A stretch of DNA of 64,000 bases from a virus (lineage: Duplodnaviria; Caudoviricetes). Shown piece by piece: positions 17,423-57,001 of this stretch. Every line of letters begins with the position of its first letter. Within the stretch, counting starts at the first letter, position 1. The notes under the pieces are model-generated. The model had not been told where the DNA came from. It saw only the letters and a program-made list of their open reading frames with translations, and made no database searches. The stretch covers positions 1 to 64,000 of the IMG/VR virus record IMGVR_UViG_3300028888_000101. One strand, 5' to 3'. Position numbers and translations under genes: made by a program.

Positions 17423-18988
17423 ATGGAGAATCCTTTTATGAATATGAATAAACTTCTTAAATCATCAATTGAGATTACAGGAAAAATACCTTTATTACTT
17501 AAAAATAAACTTGAATCAGCCGGTGTACTTGTAGACGGTCTTATCACTGGTGGAAACAACATTAACGTTACATTGAATTCTAAAGGTACAGAAACTACAG
17601 TTGAGGCTACTTTTGTCGGTAACGGTAAATGGGTTGTAGACAGTCTTGATGATGCTGCAAATCTTTTTCCAGAGATTGAAGAAGGTGATTCTGTTTCCGC
17701 AGATATGTTTACCAAGTTATTCATGAACAGTATTAATTCAGGTCTTATTCTCTCATTTAATCCGCTTGGTGAAGTAAAATACGGAATCAAAGATAAGATA
17801 GATAATCTTAAAGAAAAGGCACAGAAAGTAAAAGATTGGGCTAATAATACTTTATACGCTGAAGACGCTGAAAAATGGATTCGTGGTAACGGTCCTTACA
17901 GACGTACTTTTACTGATGCTAGAGACGGACAAACACGAACTAAAAAAGATTATAGTGCCGGTAGAATAAATGTAGGAAAGATTCAACAGTTAAACGATGA
18001 GGGTAAAGGTCATTATAAAGTTCTCACAGGAAACCCAGCTACTCAGGATTTTCAAGTATGGCACCTTTATAAGAACGGTAATAAAATCAGATGTGTTGAT
18101 TTGAAGACAGGCCTTAAACCACAAGAAGCAGAATGGGTATACGATAATAACATCCCAGATAATTGGAGTGAAGCTGATTGGAATCCTGAGGGTGAGATTC
18201 CTGAGAAAGCAAGTAAGATTGAAATACAGGAAGTTCCTCAAACAGAAGAAGATAATGTAAACGAGACAGAAGAATCTCAGACTACAGAAGAGAATAACGT
18301 AACTGCTGAATCTGAAGATGTAGAACAGACAGAAGAAGATAATATCGGTAATCCTGACAATTGGTGGGATGATTCTGAAAACGGTGATGAATGGAATGAA
18401 GATATGGAATATGTTCAAATGGATGAAGAGAATAACGTAACCGAAGAGCCTAAGAAGAAAAAGAAGAAAGTTACAGCAGCTCTTGTAAAATCAAGCATAG
18501 AAGATAGTGATTCTGATTTTGGTGAAGATGTTGAAGAGGATAATGTTATTGAATCTAAACCAAAGAAGAAGTCAAAGTATAACGGAAAGAATGTAACAGG
18601 TTATCAAGACGGTATGCTCGGAACCATGACAGTTGCATCATCTCTTATCTCATGTAGTCTTATTCTGAGTAAGATTGAAGATTTCCAAAATTATATTAAA
18701 CAATACAAATTGGGAAAGAAACCAAAGCAGGTTCTTACAGAGATATTAACACGATTACGAAAACTTCCTGCAGAAGACAGAAACAATATCACTAAAGACA
18801 GTAACAACAATGTGCTTATTATAAATTTCGGAAACACAGATTTAACTACAGAGAATTATATGGCTCAGTTTGAGATTTATGACGATGATGTTGTATCTAA
18901 AGTAAATCTCGGAAAAGGAAACAGTATGACAGGTGATGACGCTATCAGAATGTGTACGCAGACACTTGATAGCATCACTAATCCTTAG
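17423..18988 (+). CDS. large hypothetical, probably virion-associated protein with acidic low-complexity region
   Basis: 521-aa ORF; TEED/TEEN repeats. Confidence 0.75.
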   Translation: MENPFMNMNKLLKSSIEITGKIPLLLKNKLESAGVLVDGLITGGNNINVTLNSKGTETTVEATFVGNGKWVVDSLDDAANLFPEIEEGDSVSADMFTKLFMNSINSGLILSFNPLGEVKYGIKDKIDNLKEKAQKVKDWANNTLYAEDAEKWIRGNGPYRRTFTDARDGQTRTKKDYSAGRINVGKIQQLNDEGKGHYKVLTGNPATQDFQVWHLYKNGNKIRCVDLKTGLKPQEAEWVYDNNIPDNWSEADWNPEGEIPEKASKIEIQEVPQTEEDNVNETEESQTTEENNVTAESEDVEQTEEDNIGNPDNWWDDSENGDEWNEDMEYVQMDEENNVTEEPKKKKKKVTAALVKSSIEDSDSDFGEDVEEDNVIESKPKKKSKYNGKNVTGYQDGMLGTMTVASSLISCSLILSKIEDFQNYIKQYKLGKKPKQVLTEILTRLRKLPAEDRNNITKDSNNNVLIINFGNTDLTTENYMAQFEIYDDDVVSKVNLGKGNSMTGDDAIRMCTQTLDSITNP

Positions 18989-19106
18989 AAGAGATTTCTG
19001 TTAACAATTTGTCGATTTGCTCCTGAGTAAGTGGTGTAACATCCTTGAGGTACTCATCACTTACTTTTGATTTTTCATCAACATCTTTCGGACACTTGTT
19101 TTCCAT
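18978..19106 (-). CDS. 42-aa peptide resembling the FliM N-terminal CheY-binding motif
   Basis: GGAGGT RBS then ATG at 19106; C-terminal LTQEQIDKLLTEISS. Confidence 0.6.
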   Translation of the reverse strand: MENKCPKDVDEKSKVSDEYLKDVTPLTQEQIDKLLTEISSKD

Positions 19107-19110
19107 ATCA

Positions 19111-19386
19111 CTACCTCCAAGTAATAACTCTTCTTGAATTAAAGAACTGGAATAACCATTTCTCACTAAGGCACTTCTTGAAAGCGTTTCTGTACTCTGG
19201 AATAGAAAGTCTGATAGCTTCATCTGGATTAGTCTTGCTGCCGTACTTCTTTACGATACAGAGAATTTCATTTCCATCTCTTTCCCAAAGAACCTGAAGT
19301 GTATTGTCTTTGTTTGTGGCCATTACACTAGCCTGTCTGATTGATTTGAGATAAGCCTCTTTTCCTGTACATCTAACCATTTCCAT
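19111..19386 (-). CDS. hypothetical early protein
   Basis: AGGAGG RBS, sigma70-like promoter upstream. Confidence 0.7.
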   Translation of the reverse strand: MEMVRCTGKEAYLKSIRQASVMATNKDNTLQVLWERDGNEILCIVKKYGSKTNPDEAIRLSIPEYRNAFKKCLSEKWLFQFFNSRRVITWR

Positions 19387-19418: not shown

Positions 19419-19448
19419 ATTATAACATAGAATAAAATAAAAAGTAAA
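19419..19448 (-). promoter_or_regulatory. host sigma70-type promoter (class also at 25198-25226, 26517-26545, 33558-33586, 55844-55872 on -, and 28215-28243 on +)
   Basis: TTTAC(A/T) or TTGAAA, 17-18 bp spacer, TAT(A/T/G)(A/T)(T/A). Confidence 0.7.
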
Positions 19449-20662: not shown

Positions 20663-22633
20663 ATGAATAATAACAATAAGAACAGTAAACAAACCATTCC
20701 ACAAATAGTAAAACATTTTCTTACACGTGATGAAGATGAAGACCTTTTTAATCAGGTTGAGGAATATAATAACTACGCCAATTATTCGATAGAGACATCT
20801 ACAACTTCAAGGTCTATCTTAAATGCACTTAAAGACATCCCTTCAATGGTTGATGACCCTATCTGTGGTTCTGCTGTAAAAGCTGTAATGCAGACAACTT
20901 TCCAGACAAACGGTAATAACGAATTGTTTACACTTGTTACACCATCCACACTTATTGAAAACGAATTGAATGATTTCCATGAAGCAATCGGTGTAAATCA
21001 GTTCTTACTCACCACAGGATATAATAATCTTTTGTGGGGTCAGTTACCATGGAAACACATTTATAGTTCTGAGGGTGTTCTGGAAAGGGTTGTTCCTATT
21101 CCTGATTTCACAAGCATTACTCCGATTATTATCAGTGGTAAAACAATTGGATTCATAAATGAAAACGGTGACTTTGTTCCGTCTTATGAATACACATACA
21201 GTCAGCTTGAGTATTACAAGAATCTTGGCGGTAACTCTAAGAACGTTTCTATCACAATGGGAAGTAGTTCTTCTAATCCTATTGAACAGACTTTGCAGAA
21301 TGAGTTCACATACGCAAATAGTTATCTGGGACAGGCAAGTAAACCATGGAGAAACGTAAATGTAATCGAAGACGCATTACTTCTCAATCGTATGGACCAA
21401 AGTAATTACTACAGAATCATCTCTGTAAATGTCGGTGCTCAGGTTTATTCTAAATCAGCTATTCAGGTTCTTAATTATTACCGTAATCTTTTCAAGAAAG
21501 TAAGACGTGTTAATTATGATTCTGACGGAATGAGTAGCAGAGGTATCGGACAGAACTTCGAAGTTATTGTTCCTCAGACACAGAATCAAGGCGTAAACGT
21601 TCAGGAAGTTGCAGGAAATCCTGACATTAAAGCACTTAAAGACCTTGATACACAATATCAGAAACTCTTTGCCGCACTTCAGATTCAACCGTCTATGATT
21701 GGATTCTCTGAAGATACACCGTCTTCACTTGGTGACAGTGCGGCTCTTACTTGGGATAAACGATTCGCTAAAGTATGTAAAACACTTTCTTACAGTACAT
21801 ACGATGCCCTTAAAAATATTGATTATCTCCATTTGCGTTCACTTGGTTATAATGTTACTAAAGACGATTGGAAATACGCTACTGTATCTAATACAATTCA
21901 GGAAGACCAGGATAAAGGCGAAAGTCTTAAAATCGCTGTTGAGAATCTTAAAGAAATCACAGACAGTTTTACGAGTATGGAAGTTCAGTACGATAAAGAA
22001 TATCTTATCAAAACTATTCTTGGCGATGCTCTCGGTAACTTTGGTGTTGATTCTGAAAAACTTCTTGCGGCTAAAGATGATGTCGGTGATGATAATGAAC
22101 AACTTATGATTGCGACATCTCTCAGACAGGGTAAGATTAAGAACACATTCAAACAGGATATTCTTAATGAAGATGCTCGTGTTATGACTTTGAATGGTAT
22201 TTATAAAGAGAGGGAAATCAAGAAGATTATTGCAGCATTTACTAAATCAGACGTAAAGGTTGAAGAACAGACCACACCAATGACACTTAAACAGCTTTGT
22301 TCTTCGTTTGTTGTTAAACGTGATAATCCTCTGAATCTCAAGGGATTTGTAGAATATGTTGATGATGAACCTAGACTGATAGAAGATTCATTCATAGGCT
22401 CTAAACAAACAAACGGAGAAGCTGTACCGTTTAAGTTCCCTGTAATCTGTTCTAAAGAATATGAAGTTACAGCAGGTGACCTCGACCTTGGTGCAGTATC
22501 TTGTGTAAACAATCTGTATATCGACAAGAACGGTAATTATACAATCAACAGTAAGACTGACCTTGCAAGATATCTTTATAATTATATGAATGACGGTATT
22601 GATTGTTACTGTGGAACTGTATGGAAACAATAA
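20663..22633 (+). CDS. portal protein (T4 gp20-like)
   Basis: PWRNVNVIEDALLLNR...YRIISVNVG resembles gp20 LEDAxVIYRxxR..RRV..VD.G; DLDTQYQKLFAALQI resembles DxxYFxxKLYxAL. Confidence 0.8.
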   Translation: MNNNNKNSKQTIPQIVKHFLTRDEDEDLFNQVEEYNNYANYSIETSTTSRSILNALKDIPSMVDDPICGSAVKAVMQTTFQTNGNNELFTLVTPSTLIENELNDFHEAIGVNQFLLTTGYNNLLWGQLPWKHIYSSEGVLERVVPIPDFTSITPIIISGKTIGFINENGDFVPSYEYTYSQLEYYKNLGGNSKNVSITMGSSSSNPIEQTLQNEFTYANSYLGQASKPWRNVNVIEDALLLNRMDQSNYYRIISVNVGAQVYSKSAIQVLNYYRNLFKKVRRVNYDSDGMSSRGIGQNFEVIVPQTQNQGVNVQEVAGNPDIKALKDLDTQYQKLFAALQIQPSMIGFSEDTPSSLGDSAALTWDKRFAKVCKTLSYSTYDALKNIDYLHLRSLGYNVTKDDWKYATVSNTIQEDQDKGESLKIAVENLKEITDSFTSMEVQYDKEYLIKTILGDALGNFGVDSEKLLAAKDDVGDDNEQLMIATSLRQGKIKNTFKQDILNEDARVMTLNGIYKEREIKKIIAAFTKSDVKVEEQTTPMTLKQLCSSFVVKRDNPLNLKGFVEYVDDEPRLIEDSFIGSKQTNGEAVPFKFPVICSKEYEVTAGDLDLGAVSCVNNLYIDKNGNYTINSKTDLARYLYNYMNDGIDCYCGTVWKQ

Positions 22634-24234: not shown

Positions 24235-25164
24235 TTAAGCTGATTTCAGAATATCTTCTGCTGCTGAAAGCATTGAATATCCGTTCATGAAGTTGGCCAT
24301 TTTCCAATCGGCACTTGTAGAAGTTTTGCGGAGAGGTTCACCGTTTGAAACGAAATCAGCTACCGAATTGTAAAGACCCCAGGCAGTTCCCTTGAAGTTC
24401 TGAAGGTCTTCTTTATTGTGATAGATGTCTGCAATTGCAAGACCAACTTTTTCAGTAGACTTTTCAGAAAGATTCATCTTCTTGAACAATTCACGGAAGA
24501 AAGCCTCTTCACGAACTTTCTGTCCTGCCATTTTGATTGCATCTTCTTTTACACGTTCAGTGTAATTAAGTGCAAGTCCGAGAGCCTGTTCTGCTTCAGC
24601 CTGTTTACCTTTGATTGATTCTGTATGGCGAAGATTCCAAGTTCTCTGAGCACCGTTGATGGCAAGCTGCAAAGTATTTGAACATACTACTCTCACGCAG
24701 CTCACAGACGCTATTAATCCTGTTGTACCATCATGACTATTCGATACACATAAATAATTTTCAGTAGTATCACCAACCAAATCAATATCTGGCAATCTAA
24801 CCAACATAAAGGTTCGTTTACCGTTGAAAAGTGAACCTGCGGTTTCATATCTGCACTCAACACCTCTTGAATTTTCTATAATGTTATTTGTAAATTCAAA
24901 AGCGTCTTTGTTCTGTACAATTCTGTACTTACCTTTTACCATCCCAAGAACATCTTTTGTATCAGAACGTACATTTACAAAAAAGTCTGGAATTTCGGTT
25001 CCGTCTTTGAGAAATACAGGCTGTTGTACAACATCCCATCCAAGATTAGCTAATCTAATAGCTTCGTCTGAAGTGGCTGTTCCATCAATAACAGTTCCTA
25101 AACCATGCCAAGGTCTAATTCCATTTCCGCTAAACATAGTATCATGTTCCATGATTCCGTGCAT
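24235..25164 (-). CDS. DUF932/DUF945 (TIGR03299-like phage/plasmid) protein
   Basis: PWHGLG, L.WDV, Y.IVQN.DAF, ETAGSL..G...F, NSHDG, VRVVC.NTL, H..GTAWGLYN. Confidence 0.9.
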   Translation of the reverse strand: MHGIMEHDTMFSGNGIRPWHGLGTVIDGTATSDEAIRLANLGWDVVQQPVFLKDGTEIPDFFVNVRSDTKDVLGMVKGKYRIVQNKDAFEFTNNIIENSRGVECRYETAGSLFNGKRTFMLVRLPDIDLVGDTTENYLCVSNSHDGTTGLIASVSCVRVVCSNTLQLAINGAQRTWNLRHTESIKGKQAEAEQALGLALNYTERVKEDAIKMAGQKVREEAFFRELFKKMNLSEKSTEKVGLAIADIYHNKEDLQNFKGTAWGLYNSVADFVSNGEPLRKTSTSADWKMANFMNGYSMLSAAEDILKSA

Positions 25165-30408: not shown

Positions 30409-30786
30409 TTATTTATCCTCCTTTGGAAGTTCTGGAAGCTTTTCTAAATATCTCCAAGCATAAATCTTTCCAAAAATATCTACCCTTTTCCAACCAACAG
30501 GTTCTTTAGAATCCCAAAATATGAAATCAGTTCCGTTAAAACAACAATCCATTTTACAAGGATTGTCATAAGCATTAAGATAGGCAACGGTAACATTTAT
30601 ATTACCAAACTTTACATCTGGTAAATCCCCATCTTTTACATAGTGCCATTCGTTAGCCTTGTTATAACCAAACTTTGCACCTTTAATGAAAATATCTGTA
30701 ACTTCCTTTTTCCTTTCTTCTTCTCCAATATTCAATGTAACAGGATAAGTTTTGTAATAATATTCTTCTGCTTCTTTCTCAAACAT
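30409..30786 (-). CDS. mosaic-family protein (EKEAEEY plus EWHYVKDGDLP DUF551-like module)
   Basis: AGGAG RBS; ends WRYLEKLPELP. Confidence 0.75.
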   Translation of the reverse strand: MFEKEAEEYYYKTYPVTLNIGEEERKKEVTDIFIKGAKFGYNKANEWHYVKDGDLPDVKFGNINVTVAYLNAYDNPCKMDCCFNGTDFIFWDSKEPVGWKRVDIFGKIYAWRYLEKLPELPKEDK

Positions 30787-30795
30787 AGTTACTCC

Positions 30796-35735: not shown

Positions 35736-37439
35736 ATGTTTAAGTACGAACTCAATTACACCAATCTCATCCATTTGTCAAAAGTAAAGGTTAATGAGAA
35801 AAAGCTCAAGTTAACACTATATTTCGATGGAAAGATTGAAAATCAGGTTTTCGCTAATCAGAGCGATTTTGATGATGCTGTTGCAGAACTCGAAGACAAA
35901 GGACTTCTGCTCATTGGAGAAACATGGTACAATGTTGACCGTCTTTCTATCGTAGAACCAAATGCTAAAACAATCCGCTTTAACTTTATCGGTAACGTTA
36001 CTATTACTCATGAGTATGCAGACGTATCAGAAGTTGAAGATGTTATTGCATTTATCGAAGGCGGATTTGTTGAAATTAATGGTAAGTGGTATCAGGGTAA
36101 ACAGATTCACGTTGCTATGACTAACCCTAACACACTCACAATCAACTATGACTTCCTTGGTATGGATATGTTCCCTGTAACATACGAAGACCAGGCAGCA
36201 TTTGAAGACGCCCTTGATAAGATTGCTGAAATTGCAGAAGGTGGCGGTTCAGGTCCTTCTACAAAGAAAGTTGCTACTCCAAAATTCACACCTTCCGCTG
36301 GCGGTGTACCAAGTGGAACAACTGTAACAATCACATGTTCGACAAGTGGTGCAACAATCCACTATACTACAGATGGAACAACTCCTGACGCAAGTTCTCC
36401 AACTTACTCATCTCCTATCGCAATCACAGCTGAAATAACAATCAAGGCTATCGGTGTTAAAGAAGGAATGGATAATTCAAATGTTGGTAGTGCTCACTAT
36501 ACTGTTGTTCTTCCAAAGGTTGCAAATCCTGTATTTACTCCAAGTGCAGGTGAAGTAACAAGCGGAACTGAAGTAACAATTTCTTGTGCAACTTCAGGTG
36601 CGACTATTTACTACACAACAGATGGTTCTACACCAACTGAAGATTCAACAGAATATACAGCACCTATCGCTGTTACAGCTGCCGTAACTATCAAGGCAAT
36701 TGCTGTTGCAACTGATTATCAGGATTCTTCTGTTGTTACTGCTGCTTATACAATTGGTGTTCCAACAGCTGAGGCTCCAACATTCGTTCCTAACGGTGGT
36801 GAAGTTTCTAAGGGTTCTACAGTTACTCTTTCAACAACAACTCCTGGTGGTGTAATCCATTACACAACTAACGGTTCAACACCAACAGCAAGTTCACCTG
36901 TTTACGAAGACCCTATTGTTATCAACGCTGATACAACAATCAAGGCTCTTACAATCGCAGACGGTTACAAGAACAGTTCAGTTGTAACAAAGAACTTCAC
37001 AGTTCCTGCCGTAACATTGTATCGTTATATTGGCGATTACAATATGGTTGATGATGGTGAGGGTGATGTTGACCCAAGATACAAACTCACATCTGCTAAT
37101 GCGTCAACTATCATTACAGGTCTTTCTTGGCTCGAAGAAAACATCTATAACGCTAATCCAAGCGAAGATGCTAAACTTCCTGCTACTACAAGAGCGTGGG
37201 GTTCAGGTTCATCTGAGAAGACAATCCGTTCAAACTCACAGGCTGAAGTAGGTTATCAGATTATGTATGCTTATCCTGCAAGTCTTGGTGAACTTACTAA
37301 GTGTACAAACAACGGATTCGATAATACAGGTAGTTACACTCATGTAACTCTCACACTTGACGGTGAAGAATATCTCGTTTATTTCCTTACTACTCCAACA
37401 GGTAAAGAGGACCAGAACATGAGTTTGAGTTTCAACTAA
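35736..37439 (+). CDS. virion surface protein with three CHB_HEX_C/Fn3-associated repeats
   Basis: 3x P.F.P..G.V..G.TVT....T.GA.I.YTT.G.TP...S..Y..PI.......IKA. Confidence 0.85.
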   Translation: MFKYELNYTNLIHLSKVKVNEKKLKLTLYFDGKIENQVFANQSDFDDAVAELEDKGLLLIGETWYNVDRLSIVEPNAKTIRFNFIGNVTITHEYADVSEVEDVIAFIEGGFVEINGKWYQGKQIHVAMTNPNTLTINYDFLGMDMFPVTYEDQAAFEDALDKIAEIAEGGGSGPSTKKVATPKFTPSAGGVPSGTTVTITCSTSGATIHYTTDGTTPDASSPTYSSPIAITAEITIKAIGVKEGMDNSNVGSAHYTVVLPKVANPVFTPSAGEVTSGTEVTISCATSGATIYYTTDGSTPTEDSTEYTAPIAVTAAVTIKAIAVATDYQDSSVVTAAYTIGVPTAEAPTFVPNGGEVSKGSTVTLSTTTPGGVIHYTTNGSTPTASSPVYEDPIVINADTTIKALTIADGYKNSSVVTKNFTVPAVTLYRYIGDYNMVDDGEGDVDPRYKLTSANASTIITGLSWLEENIYNANPSEDAKLPATTRAWGSGSSEKTIRSNSQAEVGYQIMYAYPASLGELTKCTNNGFDNTGSYTHVTLTLDGEEYLVYFLTTPTGKEDQNMSLSFN

Positions 37440-37499
37440 CAAATTTTTTGCCTATCTTGAAACACAGGTAGGCAAATTTTATTTTAATGGAGGATATAA

Positions 37500-38198
37500 A
37501 TGGCTATTCCATTCAGTGATAACCTAGAATATCTCGGTCCAGACCCGGATTTTACCCGTCAGCAATATGCAACTATTGCAGACATGAAAGCCGTAAAGAA
37601 AGGTCGTATGCCTGAGAAATATATTGGTTATTGCCTTGAAGACCGTAATTGGTATCAATACGATAAAAACAATGAAACTGATGAAGTTCTTGGCAAATGG
37701 CGACCTTTTGGTAGTGGTGAAAGTATTCAGAAAGCAGCCCTTCCTGAAGCAAGTGAAACTGAACTTGGAAAGATTTATCAGTATGTAGGAATTACCGGAA
37801 CTTATACTCGTGGATTCTTCTATGAGTGTGTAGCCGAGGAACATACTACAACGGTAGATGTAACAACTGTAACTCAGTTCATCGAATTGATTTCTAACAG
37901 TGAACTTACTGTTCAGATTAAACTTGCAGATGAAAGTATTGTTGATACACCAGCTTATGAATTTGGTGGTGTATTCTATTTTATTTATGAAGATACAATC
38001 TATGGTGGTACAAAGGTTGAAGATGTAATCGTTGTTGCTGACAGTACAGCTTATACAACTGATGAACAGATTACTGCTCTTGGTATTACCTATGAATCAA
38101 CTTCATATACTTATTCTTGGGATAACATTGACGTATCTTCAGGTGGTGGAACAATTGAAACTATTACTGTAGAAGAAGTTGATGAACTTTTCGAGTAG
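37500..38198 (+). CDS. fibre/decoration-like structural protein
   Basis: LPEAS...GKIYQYVG..G.FYEC...W..IDVS architecture. Confidence 0.7.
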   Translation: MAIPFSDNLEYLGPDPDFTRQQYATIADMKAVKKGRMPEKYIGYCLEDRNWYQYDKNNETDEVLGKWRPFGSGESIQKAALPEASETELGKIYQYVGITGTYTRGFFYECVAEEHTTTVDVTTVTQFIELISNSELTVQIKLADESIVDTPAYEFGGVFYFIYEDTIYGGTKVEDVIVVADSTAYTTDEQITALGITYESTSYTYSWDNIDVSSGGGTIETITVEEVDELFE

Positions 38199-38214
38199 TC
38201 ATAGGAGGAATAAA

Positions 38215-39207
38215 ATGGCTGAGAAAAAATATCTTGATTATGAAGGATTGACAGAACTTGTCGCAAAAATTAAAGAGTTTGTTGGAGATGCAGGAAAACT
38301 TGAATTCAAGGGAACTGTAATTGATGTTGCACATCTTCCAAGTGTCGCAGCTCAGAAAATCGGTTATATGTATACCGTACAGACAGCCGGTAAAACAACT
38401 GCTGACTTTACAGATGGTGCAGGAAAAACAATTGCCGCTAACTCAGAAGTTGCAGCTGTACAGGTTGAAGGAACAACTGAAGTGCCTGTTTATTCTGTAG
38501 ATGCAGGTGCTTCTTATGTAACCGCTGACCTTCAGGCTTATACGCCAACAGGAACAATGAGTGCTGCAACAAAACTTGCAAGTGCTTATGTAGCTGATGG
38601 AACTGAAACTCATCTTATAGACGGTACTCTTTATGTAACTGAAGATGGTGCTTCATTCTTCTCAGTAACAGCTCTTGCTGATACATTTGCAGATTTTACT
38701 AAGGTTGCAATTGATGATGAAGACGCTATCGCAGAACTTGGAACTCTCTATACAGGTGATTCTTTCAAAGACCTTAACGCTTATACAGAAACCATTACTG
38801 GAAATGTAATGATGTGGTGTCTGCTTGGACCTGTATTCGATGTAAGCAACAAACTCACATTTGGCGATGCTTTTCCAAGTAATCCTGAAAATGGTGACAC
38901 ATTCCTCTATATGGGACCAACTACAACAGAGGATGTTTATAATGAACTTACTCTCGAAGATGGTACAGATATTGAAGGTCTTGGATATTATCACAGAGCA
39001 ACTGGTACAACAGACCCTTGGACACTTGCTTCTGAGACAACTGCCGATACAACTACATACGATTATGCAGAAAAAGAAACTGTAGAAAAGTATGTGAAAG
39101 GTGTAATCTATATTTATGATGAAACCGAAGGTGATTGGATTGCTCAGACAGCCGGAGACCAGTTTGTAGCAATTACAACTTCTGAAGTTGATGCACTGTT
39201 TGACTAA
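38215..39207 (+). CDS. fibre/decoration-like structural protein
   Basis: KKYLDYEGL N-terminus, ends IT..EVDALF; start at 38215 via AGGAGG. Confidence 0.7.
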   Translation: MAEKKYLDYEGLTELVAKIKEFVGDAGKLEFKGTVIDVAHLPSVAAQKIGYMYTVQTAGKTTADFTDGAGKTIAANSEVAAVQVEGTTEVPVYSVDAGASYVTADLQAYTPTGTMSAATKLASAYVADGTETHLIDGTLYVTEDGASFFSVTALADTFADFTKVAIDDEDAIAELGTLYTGDSFKDLNAYTETITGNVMMWCLLGPVFDVSNKLTFGDAFPSNPENGDTFLYMGPTTTEDVYNELTLEDGTDIEGLGYYHRATGTTDPWTLASETTADTTTYDYAEKETVEKYVKGVIYIYDETEGDWIAQTAGDQFVAITTSEVDALFD

Positions 39208-39324
39208 TCACTAAGCAAAATCTTCTAAAAACAAAATAACCGTATTCATAGCTAGTCTGTGGGTACGGTTATTTTTATATATTTTTATTATACATTCTTC
39301 AGTATTCTAAAGGAGGAAAAAGGA

Positions 39325-40773
39325 ATGGCAACGAAAAAATACCTTGACCAAACTGGACTTGCTGAAGTCGCAGGTTACGTCAACTCAAGATTGAAAACAG
39401 TTACTGCTATGCCAGTAAGTGCTAATAACAAAGCTGTTCGTCTTTACGTTGGTGAAGATACAGCAAGTTATCGTAAAGGACACATTTATCAGTATACTGT
39501 GAATACTTATTACGCTTGGAGACACGAAAGTCATCCTGGTGTATATCGTGATGTCTATACTTTGAGTGCAACACCGTCCGTTGATGATGATGTTTACGAA
39601 TTAAATGAAGGACATTATGAGCAAAATGGTCTTGTAGAAGCTGTCTATAGTAACAGTATTGAGTATTCTGGTTATAGTTGGGAAAGAACAGCTCAAGGAG
39701 ATGTTGAGGAAAATCTTGGTTGGGTAGACATCTCTCTTACGGATTTTGTTAAACCTGTGGACGATTTACCATATAAAGCAGATATTGGTGACGTGGTAAT
39801 TAAAGTAGGTCCAGGTACATCATATCCAAGAGGTCATATTTTCTTATGCACTGATGAAATTCACCTCTACGCTTGGGATTATGAATTCTATCCGGGAGAA
39901 TTTAATTATGTTTTCACAACAACTGATTCGCCTCAGGTTGGAGACCATGTTTATAATCCTTCAAGTCAGGGTGCTGAGATTACTAACATCACGGTTGAAG
40001 ATGATGTGGTTGTTGCAATCGAACTTAACAACAACGTAACATTCAATCGCAATTCTTCTCAAGATTACGATAATGCTGAATGGGAAGATATTACTGCTAG
40101 TGGTGGAAGTGCTGAAGATGTAAGTTATGAAAACGAACAGATTCCTTCAGCTACTAATGTTGAAGACGCACTCGATACAATTATCGGAAAGATTTATTAT
40201 GTAGACCCTGCAATTACATCATTTACAATGACACCAAGTACAGATACTTATGAGATTGGCTCTACTGTAAATGAACTTACTTTTGCTTGGGCTTATAATA
40301 AAGATATTGTAAGTCAGACATTAACAGACTGTACACTTGCTGATGAGACTGTTCGTTCTGCAACTTATAGTACACCTATCGATTCTAATAAAACATTCAC
40401 ACTTACTGCAAGTGATGGTGAGAAATCTGTTTCGGCAACTAAGTCAATTTCATTCAAGCATAAAGTTTATTGGGGTGCAGCTAGTGAATCTGCTAGTTTT
40501 GACTCAGCATTTATTCTTGCACTTACCGGAAAGAAGTTTGCAACAAACTATAAAGGTTCTTATAACATGAATCTTGGCGAAGGTCAGTACGGATACCTTG
40601 CTTACCCTGCTAGTTGGGGTACTGTAAGTGCTTGGTGGATTGGAGGATTCGAAGTTGAGACTTACGATTGTGGAACAATTGAGTTCACAAACGCAAGCGG
40701 CAACACAACTACATTCCGAATTACAAGAACTACTCAGCCTAGTCTTGGTAGTATCACAGCTGAAGTAAAATAA
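39325..40773 (+). CDS. fibre/decoration-like structural protein with C-terminal Ig-like domain
   Basis: KKYLDQTGL N-terminus; two nested insert modules; start at 39325. Confidence 0.7.
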   Translation: MATKKYLDQTGLAEVAGYVNSRLKTVTAMPVSANNKAVRLYVGEDTASYRKGHIYQYTVNTYYAWRHESHPGVYRDVYTLSATPSVDDDVYELNEGHYEQNGLVEAVYSNSIEYSGYSWERTAQGDVEENLGWVDISLTDFVKPVDDLPYKADIGDVVIKVGPGTSYPRGHIFLCTDEIHLYAWDYEFYPGEFNYVFTTTDSPQVGDHVYNPSSQGAEITNITVEDDVVVAIELNNNVTFNRNSSQDYDNAEWEDITASGGSAEDVSYENEQIPSATNVEDALDTIIGKIYYVDPAITSFTMTPSTDTYEIGSTVNELTFAWAYNKDIVSQTLTDCTLADETVRSATYSTPIDSNKTFTLTASDGEKSVSATKSISFKHKVYWGAASESASFDSAFILALTGKKFATNYKGSYNMNLGEGQYGYLAYPASWGTVSAWWIGGFEVETYDCGTIEFTNASGNTTTFRITRTTQPSLGSITAEVK

Positions 40774-40785
40774 GGAGAATGAATT

Positions 40786-43092
40786 ATGGCAATTAAATTA
40801 GCAGATACATTAAAGCCAATGGGAGATTTCCCTGCGGCAGATGCAAGTGATGTTGAAATCACGTTACATGATGAAACAAAGAAGTCTATTCAACAGGCTT
40901 ATGAAGATGGCGACCTCGGTGGTGGAAGTAGTGATGTAGACCAAACTTACGATGCAGATTCACCAAGAGCACAGGCAGGTAAAGCTGTTGCCGAGGCTAT
41001 TCAGGAAATATTTTTGGAAAATCCTGATTCGACAATTACCGCTCCGGTAGCTTCCACAGTTACTGTTTCTGAAAGTAAGGATATTTCTGGCATGTTCAAG
41101 GATGACCGAATTATTCTTCCAAGTGGTTCAACAATTAAAGGTCATGTGATTACAAACATGTCACACACTTTCGATAACTCAATTTCAGTTTCAGCCGGAC
41201 GTGTGGCAATTGACACATTTGACAGTCCTTGCGACCAAGACTACTGTTATGCCAATTCAGGCGTCACTAGCTATGCTCCTTTGAGTTCTAATGTAACAAA
41301 CGTTGTGGGAACCTATCTCAATGCCGGACAGTTTAATGGTGCAGTGACAATTTCTGATACAATTAATAACATGTATCAGACATTTGAAAATGCAGCAAGT
41401 TTCGATAGACCAATTACAATTCCTTCAGGAGTTACCAATCTCACTTCCACATTTAAGGGAGCTTCTTCTTTTAATCAACCAATTACAATCCCTTCTGGAG
41501 TTACAGACCTCAATTCTACTTTTAATGGTGCTGCAGCTTTCAACCAACCTATCACTATTCCTGCTGGAGTTACAGACCTCAATTCTACCTTCAAGGGAGC
41601 TTCCTCTTTCAACCAGCCTATTACAATCCCTGACGGATGTACTGATATGTTTGATATGTTCAATGGTGCAGCAGCTTTCAACCAGCCTATTAGTATTCCA
41701 GATACTGTTAATACTATTGGTTCTCTTTTCGAAGGTTGTGCTGCACTTGATTGTGATGTAAGTATTTCTTCTCAAATCACTAATGTTCATGGTTTAATGA
41801 AGGGTTGTGAGAGCTTTAATGCAAATGTTACTCTCAATGGTGAAGTAACCGACATGTCTAGCATGTATGAGAACTGTTCTTCTTTCAATCAGCCAATCAC
41901 TATTCCAAACACAGTTACTAATGCTACATATGCTTTCTCTGGTTGTCCGAATTTCAACCAGCCTGTAGGAAATCTTGACTATGTTGAAAACGCCTCTTAT
42001 ATGTTTAATAATTGTTCTAATTTCAATCAGCCCGTAGGAAACCTTGACAATCTCATTTATGGCACTAATATGTTTAGAAGTACAAAATTCAATCATCCTG
42101 TAGGTAACCTCAGCAATCTTGTTGACGGCAATTACATGTTAGGTGTTAGCTTCAACCAACCATTAAACCTTATCAGTCTTGTTAATGCCGAAGCTATGTT
42201 TATGGGCTCTGGTATTACTCAGCCTGTAGGTAATCTCAACAATCTTGTTCATGGTGCTCACATGTTTGAGTCATGTCTGAGTTTCAACCAGCCCGTAGGT
42301 AACCTCAGCAATCTTGTTAATGGTACTTATATGTTTAGCTACTGTTATTCTTTCAATCAGCCTGTAGGCAGCCTTACCAGTCTTGTTCAAGGTTCATATA
42401 TGTTTGGAAATTGTGAGAACTTCAATCAACCTGTTGGTAATCTTGACAATCTTGTTGATGGCTCCACCATGTTCATGAGCTGTAAAAACTTCAATCAACC
42501 TGTAGGAAATCTTGACAATCTTGCTAATGGTTCTAATATGTTCTCGCGTTGTTCTAATTTCAACCAACCATTAAACCTTGACAATCTTGCTAATGGTTCT
42601 AATATGTTCTCGCGTTGTTCTAATTTCAACCAACCTGTCAATCTCTCTAACTTAACTAATGGTTTTCAGATGTTCTCGCGTTGTTATAATTTCAACCAAC
42701 CTGTTGGTAATCTTGACAATCTTACTGATGGTTCGCTCCTGTTTACTCAATGTCCCAATTTCAACCAACCTGTAGGCAATCTTTCCAATCTTACCAACGG
42801 TACTTCTATGTTCTCGTTTGCTCGCAGCTTCAACCAACCTGTTGGTAATCTTGACAATCTTACTGATGGTTCGCTCATGTTCTCTATGAGCAGCTTCAAC
42901 CAACCTTTGTATCTTGGTGATAAAATTACTAACATGCAGGAGATGTTGTCCTCTTCTCCTTGGAAGTCCGTAGTTCATCTTCCAACTACAGTGCCTCTGT
43001 CTACTTCTAACTATATCTACAATTGTCTTGTAAATGGTAACTGTGGTGTGACAGTTCCTGCAGCAAACATCTTCAATGACCGTGTTCTGTAG
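40786..43092 (+). CDS. DUF285/BspA-like 23-aa repeat solenoid protein (adhesin-like)
   Basis: About 24 FNQP repeats in two subtypes. Confidence 0.85.
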   Translation: MAIKLADTLKPMGDFPAADASDVEITLHDETKKSIQQAYEDGDLGGGSSDVDQTYDADSPRAQAGKAVAEAIQEIFLENPDSTITAPVASTVTVSESKDISGMFKDDRIILPSGSTIKGHVITNMSHTFDNSISVSAGRVAIDTFDSPCDQDYCYANSGVTSYAPLSSNVTNVVGTYLNAGQFNGAVTISDTINNMYQTFENAASFDRPITIPSGVTNLTSTFKGASSFNQPITIPSGVTDLNSTFNGAAAFNQPITIPAGVTDLNSTFKGASSFNQPITIPDGCTDMFDMFNGAAAFNQPISIPDTVNTIGSLFEGCAALDCDVSISSQITNVHGLMKGCESFNANVTLNGEVTDMSSMYENCSSFNQPITIPNTVTNATYAFSGCPNFNQPVGNLDYVENASYMFNNCSNFNQPVGNLDNLIYGTNMFRSTKFNHPVGNLSNLVDGNYMLGVSFNQPLNLISLVNAEAMFMGSGITQPVGNLNNLVHGAHMFESCLSFNQPVGNLSNLVNGTYMFSYCYSFNQPVGSLTSLVQGSYMFGNCENFNQPVGNLDNLVDGSTMFMSCKNFNQPVGNLDNLANGSNMFSRCSNFNQPLNLDNLANGSNMFSRCSNFNQPVNLSNLTNGFQMFSRCYNFNQPVGNLDNLTDGSLLFTQCPNFNQPVGNLSNLTNGTSMFSFARSFNQPVGNLDNLTDGSLMFSMSSFNQPLYLGDKITNMQEMLSSSPWKSVVHLPTTVPLSTSNYIYNCLVNGNCGVTVPAANIFNDRVL

Positions 43093-43188
43093 TAACTAAA
43101 GTTATTCCTAAAGTTTAACCCTATTATCTTCGTAAAAGAAGGTAATGGGGTTTTATTTTTCTAATATTAAAGTATAAGGAGGAATAAT

Positions 43189-43419
43189 ATGGTTGTTAGC
43201 GGAGGAGTGTGTGGTCTTGTTGCATTACAAGTAGCATTAGCAAGTTCAAGAACCTCTTTCAAAAATGAAGAATATTCTAGTAGTTCAAAGGGTTATTCCA
43301 CTCCAACGTTTAATGCCAGAGTTGAACCTACAAATTCTATAAATCAAATGATTTATAAAAATTATTGTATCCCTCAATATCATAATCTTTGTTCAGATTT
43401 TTCTAATATTAATGTATAA
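43189..43419 (+). CDS. hypothetical protein
   Basis: Promoter motif and AGGAGG RBS. Confidence 0.5.
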   Translation: MVVSGGVCGLVALQVALASSRTSFKNEEYSSSSKGYSTPTFNARVEPTNSINQMIYKNYCIPQYHNLCSDFSNINV

Positions 43420-43434
43420 GGAGAATTCTCAAAA

Positions 43435-44544
43435 ATGGCTAAAGAAGAAAAGAAATTACAGATTACTGTCGGTATTCCTGCTTTCAAGGCACAGGACCAT
43501 ATCGAAGATTGTCTATCTTCAATCAACATTCAGACAGTAAGAGATATTATTGAAGTAGTTATTGCTTCAGACAATCCTGAAGACAACTACGATTATCTTA
43601 TTGAAAAGTTCCCTAAACTGACAATTAAGACTATATCTTGTGAAAAGAATACAGGTCCGGGTCTTGCAAGACAGAGAGCACTTGATAATGCTACAACAAA
43701 TTGGATTACCTTCATTGATGCAGACGATGTATTTATGACACCGTTCAGCCTTGAGCAGCTTGCAAAAGGTATTGGTGAAAATGTTATCGAAGTTCAGGGT
43801 CCGTTCTATCAGGAAGTTCGTGGAAATCCACAGGTACGAACAGTACAGCGTAATGATATTGGTCATCCTTGGGTATTCGGTCGTCTTTACAATACTCAGT
43901 TCCTTAAACAGTATGGAATTCAGTTCAGTGAATTAAGAGCAATGGAAGACGGTGAATTCAACTGGAAAATCAGAATGTCGATTGAAGGTACTCCTTTGAA
44001 GATTAATATTATCAACGACCCTATCTATCTTTGGAGAATCGGCAGCGAACATTCAATCACAAGAATAGGAGCGGATGATAAAGGTATTCCTCAGTACAAT
44101 TTTGACCTTTGCCAAATTGGTGCTACACAGGCAAGTATCAGAGCAATCAAGTTCTGCCGGGAAAAGAATCCTTTCAATGGTGGAATTACAAGATTTGCAA
44201 CTGAAATGATGATTGGTCATTACTTTACATACATTGAATGTCTTGAAAGAAAACCGGTATTTGCCGAGCAGAATCTGTTCAACGCAAAACGTTTTTATCA
44301 TGAAGCATACAAAGAAATTGAACATCTGATTAACGATAAGACTTTGAAAGATATGTATACAATGCAGTATGCTGGTCATTCTCAGCAGCTTATCGGTATT
44401 ATTCCTCAGATTAGTTTCAATGAATTCTTTGATAAGGTGAAGAACGATAAGTACGATGGCGAAAACGAACTGAAGGAAATCCGTTCTAAATTCAGTAAAG
44501 AAATTCTTGATAACGATAAGAAGTGCGGTGTTGCAATCTGGTGA
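43435..44544 (+). CDS. GT2-family glycosyltransferase
   Basis: ITVGIPAFKA..IEDCL.SI, GPGLARQ.AL, WITFIDADD, EDGEF. Confidence 0.9.
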   Translation: MAKEEKKLQITVGIPAFKAQDHIEDCLSSINIQTVRDIIEVVIASDNPEDNYDYLIEKFPKLTIKTISCEKNTGPGLARQRALDNATTNWITFIDADDVFMTPFSLEQLAKGIGENVIEVQGPFYQEVRGNPQVRTVQRNDIGHPWVFGRLYNTQFLKQYGIQFSELRAMEDGEFNWKIRMSIEGTPLKINIINDPIYLWRIGSEHSITRIGADDKGIPQYNFDLCQIGATQASIRAIKFCREKNPFNGGITRFATEMMIGHYFTYIECLERKPVFAEQNLFNAKRFYHEAYKEIEHLINDKTLKDMYTMQYAGHSQQLIGIIPQISFNEFFDKVKNDKYDGENELKEIRSKFSKEILDNDKKCGVAIW

Positions 44545-44562
44545 CATCTGCTGATATCTGTT

Positions 44563-44650
44563 AAAATAAGGGGTATTTTAGGTTGGTAGTGTTATTATAC
44601 TATTTTCGCTAAATACCCCTTATTTTTTCAATCTATGAGCGTTTAAGGGC
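44563..44650. repeat. dispersed intergenic element copy with a 16-bp inverted repeat
   Basis: AAAATAAGGGGTATTT/AAATACCCCTTATTTT around the TAGTATAATAACACTA core (minus strand); CAATCTATGAGCG box. Confidence 0.7.
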
Positions 44651-44698
44651 ACATTATTATATATTTTTTATCTATTATTTCATTATAAAGGTAATCAA

Positions 44699-45304
44699 AT
44701 GGCAATAACGCAATTTAATATTTTTGAAGAATCTCAGTTTTGTGTAGGTTTCAATATTACCTTAGTCTGTGATAATCTTAGACCAACATCTGCAAAAACT
44801 GTAACATATCCTGACGGATTCTCACTTCTTCCTTACATAACATTTAACGTACTGTTCGTAAACGGATTTGCTGCGGCAAATACAGCTATGACAATAAACG
44901 GCATTCCTGTGAAAGTAAATGATAATGGAACTCTCAAAGATTTACCTAAAGTTGGTGCAAACAATGATGTTCTTCCATACGGTTACGTATTACCTTTATA
45001 TTATGATGCTACAAATAACAGATTCATTATTATAGGTAATCCAATCCTTACTTGTAATAGTGATTATATAATATTTGCTAACGGTACTATTATTTGGAAT
45101 GTTGTAAAGAACAAGATAGGTTCTGAACTTGGACTTACTGCAACTAATTATACAGGTAAAGCAACTACAGCGGCTACAGCAGATAACGCATTGGCTTGTT
45201 CAGGAAATGCAGTTACAGCTACCACAGCAGATACAGCCAAACGATTAAGAGTTCTTAGTGGAGTTCCATCTGGTGTACAAGCCGGTGATATTTGGATTCA
45301 GTAG
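44699..45304 (+). CDS. tail-fibre-like protein
   Basis: ATTAATADNA/ATTADTAKRL repeats; P...GDIWI end. Confidence 0.6.
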   Translation: MAITQFNIFEESQFCVGFNITLVCDNLRPTSAKTVTYPDGFSLLPYITFNVLFVNGFAAANTAMTINGIPVKVNDNGTLKDLPKVGANNDVLPYGYVLPLYYDATNNRFIIIGNPILTCNSDYIIFANGTIIWNVVKNKIGSELGLTATNYTGKATTAATADNALACSGNAVTATTADTAKRLRVLSGVPSGVQAGDIWIQ

Positions 45305-45311
45305 GTGATGT

Positions 45312-54516: not shown

Positions 54517-54715
54517 TTGTTCTTGGTTTAAGGTTCAAAATAGTTTCTCCAACATCTCTTTTGTACATAGATACGGATACATTTGATGTAACATTGGCAG
54601 GTTGCTTTTCCAACTTTACTGTATCACCAGGAAAAATACTGATATACTCTCCGTCAAGATAATAAGTTCCTTCAGAACGGCTTTTATTTATAAGAACATA
54701 GTACGTTTTCTTCAT
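54491..54715 (-). CDS. small hypothetical protein
   Basis: AGGAG RBS; G....I.PG.TV.L beta motif. Confidence 0.65.
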   Translation of the reverse strand: MKKTYYVLINKSRSEGTYYLDGEYISIFPGDTVKLEKQPANVTSNVSVSMYKRDVGETILNLKPRTTKVVKKSR

Positions 54716-54746
54716 AATAATAACTCCTTATTAAAATATTTAATTA

Positions 54747-55808
54747 TTATATCGTTCTACCTTTATAATATCCTACAGGACATTCTTTAGCCTGAATGTT
54801 GTGAACACCGTCTGTATACCAATGCTTTCCGAGAGCACTTAGATTCTTTCTAGCATTTATTTTCCCTGGTCTATAACCTTCAGGACATTCAGCACCACGA
54901 TAATTTACTACACCATTTGTAAACCATTTCATATTTGTTTTATCATGTTCTTTTCCACGATGTGCATCAGCAGCTTTTTTAATCCATTCTTCTGTATGAA
55001 TTACTTTTTTACAGCTTTCAGACATTCTGCGTTTGTACTCTTCATCATGAACCGTTCCTCTATTAGCATCTCCAATTTTCTTTTTGGTTTCTTCAGAAAG
55101 ATGAGTACCACGTCTAGTCTCATATTGTGCCTGATGTGCTGCATATTCTTCTTCAGAATATTTTCTACCCTTCAACCTGTCTGACATAGCCTGTCTAGCC
55201 TCAGGATGTTCCACATAATGTCTTTTAATACCCTCAGAGACTTTCTGAATATATTCTGGATTCTTACAAAGTTCTGTCATTCTCTGTGACATACCCTCAC
55301 GCACTTCAGGATGGTCGTTATAATACTGTTTCATATATTCTGAATGTTCCTGCTTACGTTCAGGATGTTCAGCATAATGTTTATTCATGCGTTCAGAAAC
55401 CTTTTGACGTTCTTCAGGGTCTTCGTAACGTTTCTTCATACGGTTGGATATTTCCTGTTTTGCCTCAGGATGGTTCTTATAGTATTCTTTAAGAGCCTCT
55501 GAATTATTACGATATTTCTTGACAAATTTCTTGATATACTCACGTCTTGATTTAACAGAAACATGAACTTTTGTATGTTCAGAATCAGTTAAAAATATTA
55601 ATTCTGAAGCAGGTCTATGATAATATAAGTTATGTTCGATTAAATATTTCCTTGATAATTCTTTAGTTCTTAAATCTCCATTTTCATCATGCGTTTCTAG
55701 TCTATGATGACAATGCCATGTTCTATTTTCATCTTTTACGCAATCATCATAATTTTCAATTAAATTTAAATCATCTTTACAAAATGCATAAGCGTTTACA
55801 GAATACAT
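54747..55808 (-). CDS. free-standing HNH endonuclease with NUMOD3-like repeats
   Basis: WHCHHRLETH...FLT.SEH; EHPE..Q..S.RM repeats; HLSEETKKKIG; WFTNG/WYTDG. Confidence 0.85.
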   Translation of the reverse strand: MYSVNAYAFCKDDLNLIENYDDCVKDENRTWHCHHRLETHDENGDLRTKELSRKYLIEHNLYYHRPASELIFLTDSEHTKVHVSVKSRREYIKKFVKKYRNNSEALKEYYKNHPEAKQEISNRMKKRYEDPEERQKVSERMNKHYAEHPERKQEHSEYMKQYYNDHPEVREGMSQRMTELCKNPEYIQKVSEGIKRHYVEHPEARQAMSDRLKGRKYSEEEYAAHQAQYETRRGTHLSEETKKKIGDANRGTVHDEEYKRRMSESCKKVIHTEEWIKKAADAHRGKEHDKTNMKWFTNGVVNYRGAECPEGYRPGKINARKNLSALGKHWYTDGVHNIQAKECPVGYYKGRTI

Positions 55809-55948
55809 AAATATGTCCTCAAATTATATATTTTATGATACTATTTATATCATTATTGCCTTTTTGTGTAAAGTATTATTAACCTAATTGCAATAAATGA
55901 TACTTAGCATAAATTACAATCTTTTTTTTTTGAAAAGGAGGCTGTTAA

Positions 55949-56965
55949 GTGGGACAAGTAAATGTCGGAACGCAAAGCATTGGATGGAAATATAGTACAC
56001 CACTTCAAGCAGATTATCTTAATACATTTATTTCAGGAATCTCAACACCGGGTCTTTTGAGTAGACCTAAGATTGAAGTTATATCTACAAACAATGGTGC
56101 TACCGTTACAATAAAACCATTCTCATTACTTATAAATCCTACCGATTCTGAAAAGTATGTTACAGAGGATGGAAAGACTTTCTATCCTAGACTTGTAAAA
56201 ATTACCACAGCTGATAACGCTATTCTTACAGTATTTCCTGAAACTGTAGCAATTGGATTTACATATAGTTTCAAAGATGAAGGTGTAGCAAAACCTTCTT
56301 GGTATGGTGATTTTATGACACTTGACCAATATACGGTTGGTGAATTTGAAGGTGTTATTGTTGCAACATGTCAGAGTAAGACATTGACTGGCGGTACTAC
56401 ATTGTACTCTGTATCAACAAGTGGTGCAGATATCAGTAACGCTTTACTTATTGCTGAGGGTTGGAATCCTAGAAAATGGTTGAGTCTTGTTCATCCTAAA
56501 CGAAGTGCTTTTGGTAGTCAGGGTGTAAAGGGCATTTATAATCGTCTTGAAATCCGTTCTGACAATGATTTGTACAGGGGATATATCAATGGAAATCTTG
56601 GTACTATATCTTTACAAACTGCAGCAGATGTGACTATTCAGATTGACCCTAACGAGGCTGTACCAGGAACAGACCCTTACAATGAACGTGGTAAGATGAC
56701 CTATAACTATAACACTTACAGATTACAGACTAGAGGATTTGAGAAAGCACAATGCGGTAATTCACTTCCTATCGTAAGAACATCTGGCGGTATTTTTGCT
56801 TTTGTAGATGCAACTGATGTTAACTATGCAATTGCACATGAAGGTAGTGGTTCTCTTACTCCTGAACAGCAGCAGAATGGTTTTGCCAATAAATTAAAGA
56901 TATCTCCTGTTGAGCAGGAAGACATCAATATTTATTACTATAACAATACTTTAACCATAAATTAA
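55949..56965 (+). CDS. putative baseplate/tail structural protein
   Basis: GTG start with AGGAGG; directly upstream of the sheath. Confidence 0.6.
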   Translation: MGQVNVGTQSIGWKYSTPLQADYLNTFISGISTPGLLSRPKIEVISTNNGATVTIKPFSLLINPTDSEKYVTEDGKTFYPRLVKITTADNAILTVFPETVAIGFTYSFKDEGVAKPSWYGDFMTLDQYTVGEFEGVIVATCQSKTLTGGTTLYSVSTSGADISNALLIAEGWNPRKWLSLVHPKRSAFGSQGVKGIYNRLEIRSDNDLYRGYINGNLGTISLQTAADVTIQIDPNEAVPGTDPYNERGKMTYNYNTYRLQTRGFEKAQCGNSLPIVRTSGGIFAFVDATDVNYAIAHEGSGSLTPEQQQNGFANKLKISPVEQEDINIYYYNNTLTIN

Positions 56966-57001
56966 GTTATATATTTTTAATAATACTAAAGGAGAATTAC
57001 A

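Follow-up and report, generated by a model that had tools for sequence, protein, structure and literature searches.

A 42-residue micro-protein encoded by an uncultured tailed phage (Duplodnaviria; Caudoviricetes) ends in a peptide that resembles the N terminus of the flagellar motor protein FliM (FliM-N) of Treponemataceae. The gene lies within a 64,000-nucleotide stretch of DNA, hereafter the window, which comprises positions 1 to 64,000 of the IMG/VR record IMGVR_UViG_3300028888_000101. The record as a whole is 83.5 kb long, has a guanine-plus-cytosine (GC) content of 34%, and is estimated to be 59% complete. FliM-N is the docking site of phosphorylated CheY (CheY-P) (PMC5677366, PMC6946799). 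Based on the comparisons presented below, we propose, with a probability of about 0.65, that the micro-protein is a free-standing mimic of FliM-N that would serve as a decoy for CheY-P.

Likeness of the micro-protein tail to FliM

The FliM N-termini that we read from a sample of Treponemataceae genomes all follow the pattern M-[NT]-E-V-LSQDEIDQLL-x-AISSG (34 of 34). The preliminary description of this DNA, which was made from the sequence alone, had quoted a treponemal FliM start, and this start is present letter for letter in real genomes (L136, L216). Alignment of the micro-protein tail LTQEQIDKLLTEISSKD with the FliM 17-mer LSQDEIDQLLTAISSGD revealed 11 identical residues of 17 and five conservative changes, with the pattern L-[ST]-Q-x-[EQ]-I-D-x-L-L, including its I-D pair, at residues 26-35 of the micro-protein. 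In Caulobacter FliM, mutagenesis has shown that the I-D pair is needed for reversals (PMC5677366). The preliminary description had also claimed that the likeness extends into the stretch LLTxISS, which is borne out by a genome that we link to the phage through a clustered regularly interspaced short palindromic repeat (CRISPR) array: the tail continues with T-E-I-S-S-K-D and FliM of that genome with T-A-I-S-S-G-D. Thus, the micro-protein has in common with FliM-N (EIDAL, LSQxEIDxLL) both the hydrophobic-[ST]-Q-x-[EQ]-I-D-x-L-L core and the spirochaete-specific T-x-I-S-S-x-D continuation.

The tail scored 53 as an ungapped 17-mer under BLOSUM62, in contrast to 23 for the next best segment in the six frames of the 83-kb phage, and it scored 47 against the commonest FliM variant. 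Across 300 composition-preserving shuffles, the maxima were 27.9 +/- 2.8, from which an extrapolated Gumbel distribution gives P ~1.5e-5 per phage genome. A hidden Markov model of FliM N-termini, which the preliminary description had suggested as a check, ranked the micro-protein first in the phage, at 10.0 bits (E 0.06) versus 3.1 bits for the runner-up. A chance resemblance without functional meaning gains some ground from the shortness of the motif, from residues that are common in this AT-rich phage, and from an initial inspection that was free to match any known motif. However, the shuffling probability, the conservation of the motif across remote homologs, and an independently obtained concordance with the host, which are both described below, render chance barely credible as an explanation.

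Searches of Pfam at E <= 1 returned no family for the 42-residue frame or for an 81-residue frame that extends it upstream, which indicates that neither a FliM middle domain (PF02154) nor a SPOA domain (PF01052) is present; genuine FliM proteins in this analysis score 140-297 bits. We conclude that the micro-protein stands outside the FliM family and most likely works like FliM-N. At the nucleotide level, the tail is ~55% identical to host fliM, with ~30% identity at third codon positions, which indicates that the likeness is maintained at the protein level. The third-position value also led us to reject a recent acquisition of fliM from the host.

The exact core [LF]TQEQIDx[LF][LF] was found in at least 120 places when ~186,000 prokaryote genomes were scanned. 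Among the 120 matches listed, 37 lie in full open reading frames that encode 329-340 residues, with the core 4-5 residues from the start, and Pfam assigned 36 of these to FliM and one to FliY. Most of the FliM and FliY carriers are rumen Oscillospiraceae-type, Selenomonadaceae, and Treponemataceae genomes.

Two further fliM-like genes were encountered. One Treponemataceae genome contains, in addition to a normal FliM, a second and weak FliM-like gene (G001 contig C23; L044:320-348 (-); 75 bits; open frame of ~395 residues) with the N-terminal sequence LTQEQIDELL, which is the T/Q variant as in the phage. A complete fliM (L227:5960-6982 (+); 341 residues; 45% GC) is located on a 90-kb IMG/VR 'viral' contig; this contig is probably either misclassified or host DNA that flanks a provirus.

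Conservation of the micro-protein and its cassette

Homologs of the micro-protein form six clusters at 90% identity (74-100% identity), which are all 42 residues long and always occur in the same cassette on contigs from rumen-type metagenomes. In a codon alignment, the differences are mostly synonymous: the proportions of synonymous (pS) and nonsynonymous (pN) differences are 0.64 and 0.12, respectively, for a pN/pS ratio of 0.18. The micro-protein gene is therefore real and under purifying selection. The cassette, in which a small open reading frame directly follows a gene of a 91-residue protein family and ends in the motif, is present in the window and in relatives (L001-L010, L225). Its first gene encodes 91-97 residues, and the cassette converges on a gene that encodes 450-560 residues. 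A word-based protein search revealed no longer or fused forms of the micro-protein, a phmmer search of PDB sequences with the micro-protein gave no match, and a protein-atlas look-up returned only unnamed clusters below 0.9.

A profile of the 91-residue partner detected about a dozen small remote homologs, and we read the gene after the partner in four remote cases (L219, L220, L221/L222, and L223). In the first, the small gene (L219:2806-2913) encodes a 35-residue protein that has an unrelated N-terminal half with a basic 15-residue leader and ends in LSQKEIDELLSKIASKD plus two residues. In L223 (1786-1926), a 46-residue protein ends in MSQEEIDELLTRINSDD and retains faint N-terminal likeness to the micro-protein in K-C-x-K-D and Y-L-D/K stretches. 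The L221 cassette (1808-2080), and likewise L222, encodes a 90-residue protein that has an unrelated N-terminal part and ends in YSQEQIDGILTEIANPD. The three tails share the C-terminal pattern x-S-Q-x-[EQ]-I-D-x-[LI]-L-[TS]-x-I, with one of them reading exactly LSQ-x-EID-x-LL, and the I-D pair is among the invariant positions. Because the remainder of the small protein has diverged in these cassettes, the C-terminal element x-S/T-Q-x-E/Q-I-D-x-L/I-L-T/S-x-I is clearly the conserved one. The preliminary description had named a lack of motif conservation among homologs as grounds for abandoning its proposal; instead, each of the three remote cassettes with the small gene retains the motif, which is the sole recognizable remnant in two of them.

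The constancy of the cassette also raises the possibility that the conserved C-terminal helix forms an interface with the 91-residue protein, or with some other protein of the phage or host that has no part in chemotaxis, and that the likeness to FliM is a by-product of a common helix-start sequence. In that case, the two genes would encode a complex of another function, such as an anti-defence or toxin-antidote pair. The small gene follows the 91-residue gene in every cassette where it was found, the N-terminal half is also constrained, and sequences of the type L-T-Q-x-Q-x-D-x-L are found at helix starts of many unrelated proteins. However, the likeness runs seven residues past the common core and is best to FliM of the host family named by the CRISPR match. 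Furthermore, one remote cassette (L220) has the partner without the small gene, and two other phage families, described below, carry the host FliM peptide without the partner. Taken together, these observations suggest that an interface of this kind is an unlikely origin of the resemblance.

The structure predicted for the 91-residue partner by AlphaFold2 is a small alpha/beta fold with a predicted local distance difference test score (pLDDT) of 80. No Pfam or PHROG family was found for this protein, and structural searches gave no convincing fold match (Foldseek E >= 0.1; best PDB Z 6.0 (VIA), to an uncharacterised Bacteroides protein); the comparison with WGR-like domains gave Z 4.2 (VIA). 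The central 40 residues of the partner produce profile matches (E 1e-13 to 1e-3) to repeated immunoglobulin-like modules of giant surface proteins, with 4-13 matching stretches per giant protein. These matches probably reflect a shared beta-hairpin pattern rather than homology.

Host assignment and genomic setting

We searched 20 kb of the phage DNA by BLAST against 301 Treponemataceae genomes. Genome G275 contains, on contig C21, a regular CRISPR array of 16 repeats, in which spacer 15 matches the protospacer given in Table 1 at 31 of 34 bases, with the trinucleotide TTC directly adjoining. Each of the three mismatches is a transition, and in the 521-residue gene that contains the protospacer two are synonymous. 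The repeat of this array and the TTC presumably fit a type I-C system. FliM of G275 begins with exactly the best-matching 17-mer.

The same search produced ~38 matches at E <= 1e-4, including 16 below 1e-8, in the 301 Treponemataceae genomes. In contrast, control searches with the same DNA produced one weak match in 201 Selenomonadaceae genomes and two weak matches in 201 genomes of a 'Ruminiclostridium'-type family; FliM of both these rumen families likewise contains the core motif. Fn3_assoc/CHB_HEX_C repeats in a tail-fibre-like protein (36547-36706, within gene 35736-37439) are 70-78% identical at the DNA level to many Treponemataceae genomes and had no match in the 402 control genomes of the two other rumen families, which suggests domain exchange with the host. 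From these matches, we conclude that the host of the phage is probably a Treponema-type spirochaete of the Treponemataceae. The treponemal target that the preliminary description had guessed from the motif thus agrees with evidence that is independent of the motif, namely the CRISPR spacer and the family-specific DNA similarity. G275 also carries a cheW/R-cheX-cheY operon, and the closest solved relative of its CheY is Borrelia CheY3 (3hzh, E 3.5e-49).

Short exact matches in other Treponemataceae genomes (e.g., G266 and G137) included none in CRISPR arrays. A search of window positions 37001-57000 against Treponemataceae gave no further spacers, although this search was swamped by a tRNA-Gln match: the phage tRNA-Gln(UUG) at 53304-53381 shares 79-90% identity with tRNA-Gln of most of the Treponemataceae genomes searched, 268 of the 301 having a match. 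Two other similarities to this family were observed. Positions 30763-30791 are an exact 29-nucleotide match to contig C66 of G266 and cover the ribosome-binding site and start of a gene beginning MFEKEAEE, which belongs to a 'mosaic' family of small genes in the phage; its modules are common to Treponema genomes or their prophages. Positions 24268-24607, within a DUF932 gene (24235-25164, minus strand), are 68% identical over 340 nucleotides to contig C35 of G027, also of the Treponemataceae.

The micro-protein gene is the second of a two-gene unit on the minus strand, which sits between the convergent 521-residue gene and a block containing the portal gene (Table 1). The preliminary description had reported a 42-residue open reading frame with a GGAGGT ribosome-binding site and the FliM-like ending, placed second in a unit driven by sigma-70. 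Its coordinates proved exact, and both a promoter-like site and the upstream 91-residue gene were found. The TTTAC of the promoter and its -10 element are conserved in most aligned related contigs and in L219, and the relatives, with an intergenic gap of 10 nucleotides, have GGAGG as well. Gene callers applied to public assemblies also called the frame, mostly as 42 residues. The 81-residue upstream extension was rejected on two grounds: conservation of the upstream 91-residue frame runs to the stop codon of that frame, and the majority of public calls have 42 residues. The nearest relatives of the portal, at 23-27% identity, are from myoviruses of Listeria, Streptococcus, Bacillus, and Flavobacterium and are too distant to be informative on the host, and a blastn search of a phage collection with 6 kb of the window gave no match.

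Table 1. Positions of the micro-protein locus in the window and of proteins with a FliM-like start in Campylobacter phages
Feature	Position	Strand	Basis
42-residue micro-protein gene, ATG start, stop codon included	18978..19106	-	open reading frame listing; six conserved clusters; pN/pS 0.18
FliM-N-like peptide, residues 26-42, L-T-Q-E-Q-I-D-K-L-L-T-E-I-S-S-K-D	18981..19031	-	BLOSUM62 score; kept in distant cassettes
Ribosome-binding site GGAGGT, 6 bases before ATG, overlaps stop codon of 91-residue gene	19113..19118	-	sequence
91-residue protein, first cassette gene, fold class unassigned	19111..19386	-	conserved in all relatives
Sigma-70-like promoter TTTACT-18-TATAAT, extended -10 TG	19419..19448	-	consensus scan, 10/12 matches
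Convergent 521-residue gene, 3' end overlapping micro-protein gene by 11 nt	17423..18988	+	open reading frame listing; arrangement same in all relatives
Protospacer 18686-18719 and adjoining TTC 18683-18685, within 521-residue gene	18683..18719	+	CRISPR spacer match, basis of host assignment
T4-type portal	20663-22633		
Campylobacter phage protein with FliM-like start	L237:3153-3536	-	
Campylobacter phage protein with FliM-like start	L232:1404-1766	+	
Campylobacter phage protein with FliM-like start	NC_015464.1:121517-121900		

FliM-like peptides in other phages and the proposed function

Scans of IMG/VR identified two further proteins with a treponemal FliM peptide, one of 150 residues on an 86.6-kb record (L224:6364-6813 (-)) and one of 137 residues on a 261-kb record (L228:2210-2620 (-)), with the GC contents of the records at 33-35%. 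The two proteins are homologous and 35% identical overall, and each opens with a short leader, followed by 16 residues that match residues 2-17 of Treponemataceae FliM exactly and are 100% conserved between the two; an acidic linker then leads into a coiled coil at the C terminus. Like the micro-protein, these jumbo-phage coiled-coil proteins are encoded by phages on low-GC contigs, display the treponemal FliM peptide, and have the same presumed target. In contrast to the micro-protein, they carry an exact copy of the peptide (16/16) in an internal position followed by the coiled coil, and the proteins are unrelated outside the motif. The 91-residue partner was not found in either record, and the phage of the window has no homolog of the coiled-coil proteins.

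The variety of sequences attached to the peptide bears on whether the micro-protein could be an adaptor, whose tail captures CheY-P and whose N-terminal part or 91-residue partner brings CheY-P to another target. The outcome could be a phage decision that is coupled to the chemotaxis state of the host, or the delivery of CheY-P for dephosphorylation or degradation. The N-terminal parts of the small proteins are lineage-specific yet constrained within a lineage, one version has a 70-residue extra domain, and the jumbo-phage family adds its coiled coil, all of which would suit an adaptor. However, we found no evidence for a second partner, and the shortest version, with 35 residues, has only its basic 15-residue leader, which makes an adaptor improbable.

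A scan for LSQEEIDALL revealed proteins of 121-128 residues, annotated as hypothetical, in 44 cultured Campylobacter phage genomes, including NCTC12673, PC14, CPX, and CP30A. These proteins, for which no Pfam match was found, begin with M-A-x-I (or M-I) followed by LSQEEIDALL. Similarly, 29 of 31 FliM N-termini from Campylobacterales begin with [MV]-A-x-[ILF] followed by the motif, which is mostly exactly LSQEEIDALL (for example, MADILSQEEIDALL). Like the micro-protein, the Campylobacter phage protein reproduces the FliM start of its host order; it differs in host phylum and protein family and in having the FliM start at its true N terminus. On the basis of this similarity, it is a candidate FliM-N mimic in phages that can be cultured. 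Two additional proteins on viral contigs, of 128 residues (L234:327-710 (+)) and 107 residues (L289:1048-1368 (-)), start with M-G-LTQE[EQ]IDALL-T and, as judged from this start, may be further mimics with an EIDAL-type motif at the true N terminus. We see an even chance that copying of the CheY-docking peptide of FliM is a recurrent phage strategy with at least three independent origins, represented by the rumen micro-protein, the jumbo-phage coiled-coil proteins, and the Campylobacter phage protein.

Several observations weigh against the proposal that the micro-protein is a FliM-N mimic. Unlike FliM-N, the micro-protein is free-standing and phage-encoded, has no middle or SPOA domain, and carries five conservative replacements, and its motif is C-terminal (residues 26-42 of 42) rather than N-terminal. 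Relative to the host peptide, the residue changes are S to T, D to E, E to Q, Q to K, A to E, and G to K. About two-thirds of the core matches listed are in proteins other than FliM, such as histidine kinases, ComEA-like proteins, and nitroreductases, which indicates that the core alone is not diagnostic. A profile of the micro-protein matched PDB sequences of lysozymes with PLTQNQFDAL best (E 0.3-0.5), not FliM. The DNA gives no sign of a recent capture that could prove common descent with fliM, and in the remote cassette L220 the partner homolog is followed by an unrelated open reading frame. The link to the host consists of one spacer with three mismatches, and no cas genes were found on the 6 kb of the G275 contig beside the array. 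Finally, within the close clade, pN/pS is 0.15 for the N-terminal half and 0.23 for the motif; because the N-terminal half is under as much constraint as the motif, the micro-protein does more than display a peptide.

If the micro-protein is a FliM-N mimic, an infected Treponema-type spirochaete would express it from a promoter of its own, and the last 17 residues of the micro-protein would cover the face at which FliM binds CheY-P, which would be of the CheY3 type and encoded in the cheX-cheY operon. CheY-P sequestered in this manner would be kept from the motor. CheY3-P of Borrelia binds FliM-N; deletion of cheY3 results in constant runs and the absence of chemotaxis, and cheX deletion mutants flex constantly (bioRxiv 10.1101/2020.05.18.101634). 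By analogy with the Borrelia mutants, a soluble copy of the peptide would compete with the motor and reproduce the cheY3 phenotype, with constant running and loss of chemotaxis. The preliminary description had likewise inferred a decoy that sequesters CheY-P and alters motor switching or chemotaxis, and our results favour this interpretation in all of its computable predictions. The micro-protein would then bind CheY-P, affect motility, and benefit the phage, and it may be expressed early, as the preliminary description had supposed; the candidate benefits are dispersal of infected cells, a saved cost of signalling, and the blocking of behavior that lowers burst size. The constrained N-terminal half and the conserved partner suggest that the function may exceed that of a plain sink.

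The mimic could instead act on the motor or on another partner of FliM-N, for instance by competing with FliM-N for a spirochaete-specific component of the C-ring. Cryo-tomography of Borrelia has revealed extra, unidentified C-ring density in one rotational state (bioRxiv 10.1101/2020.05.18.101634), which would leave room for such a component. In the literature that we consulted, however, the partner described for FliM-N is CheY (PMC5677366, PMC6946799), and a target other than CheY-P appears highly improbable.

Other cellular peptides, namely the C-terminal peptide of CheZ and the N terminus of FliY, bind CheY-P at the face used by FliM-N. They resemble the micro-protein tail in being short and amphipathic with a similar pattern, and the CheZ peptide is likewise C-terminal, whereas each is attached to a phosphatase or to the motor and belongs to the host pathway. 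A further parallel among phages is offered by the Pseudomonas phage inhibitors of the pilus ATPase PilB, which are small proteins encoded in their own transcription units that disable host motility. These inhibitors target type IV pili, not flagellar chemotaxis, and we know of no report that they copy a host docking peptide.

Our full-text literature searches turned up no work on phage proteins directed at CheY or copying FliM-N, and short-motif mimicry, which is familiar in viruses of eukaryotes, is hardly documented for phages. The micro-protein family, the CRISPR link to a host, and the Campylobacter phage case are new, and the analysis connects an uncultured rumen phage lineage of ~140 kb to Treponema. 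If CheY-P binding is true, phages would edit not only the metabolism or defence of their hosts but also their behavior, in this case steering, and the micro-protein would represent a natural, minimal, and genetically encoded trap of CheY-P for spirochaetes, a group in which chemotaxis is difficult to investigate. If the strategy is recurrent, an idea that is open to testing in cultured Campylobacter phages, then phages of flagellated hosts would routinely uncouple the motor from chemotaxis during infection, which would constitute a class of host-takeover function without description in the literature that we searched.

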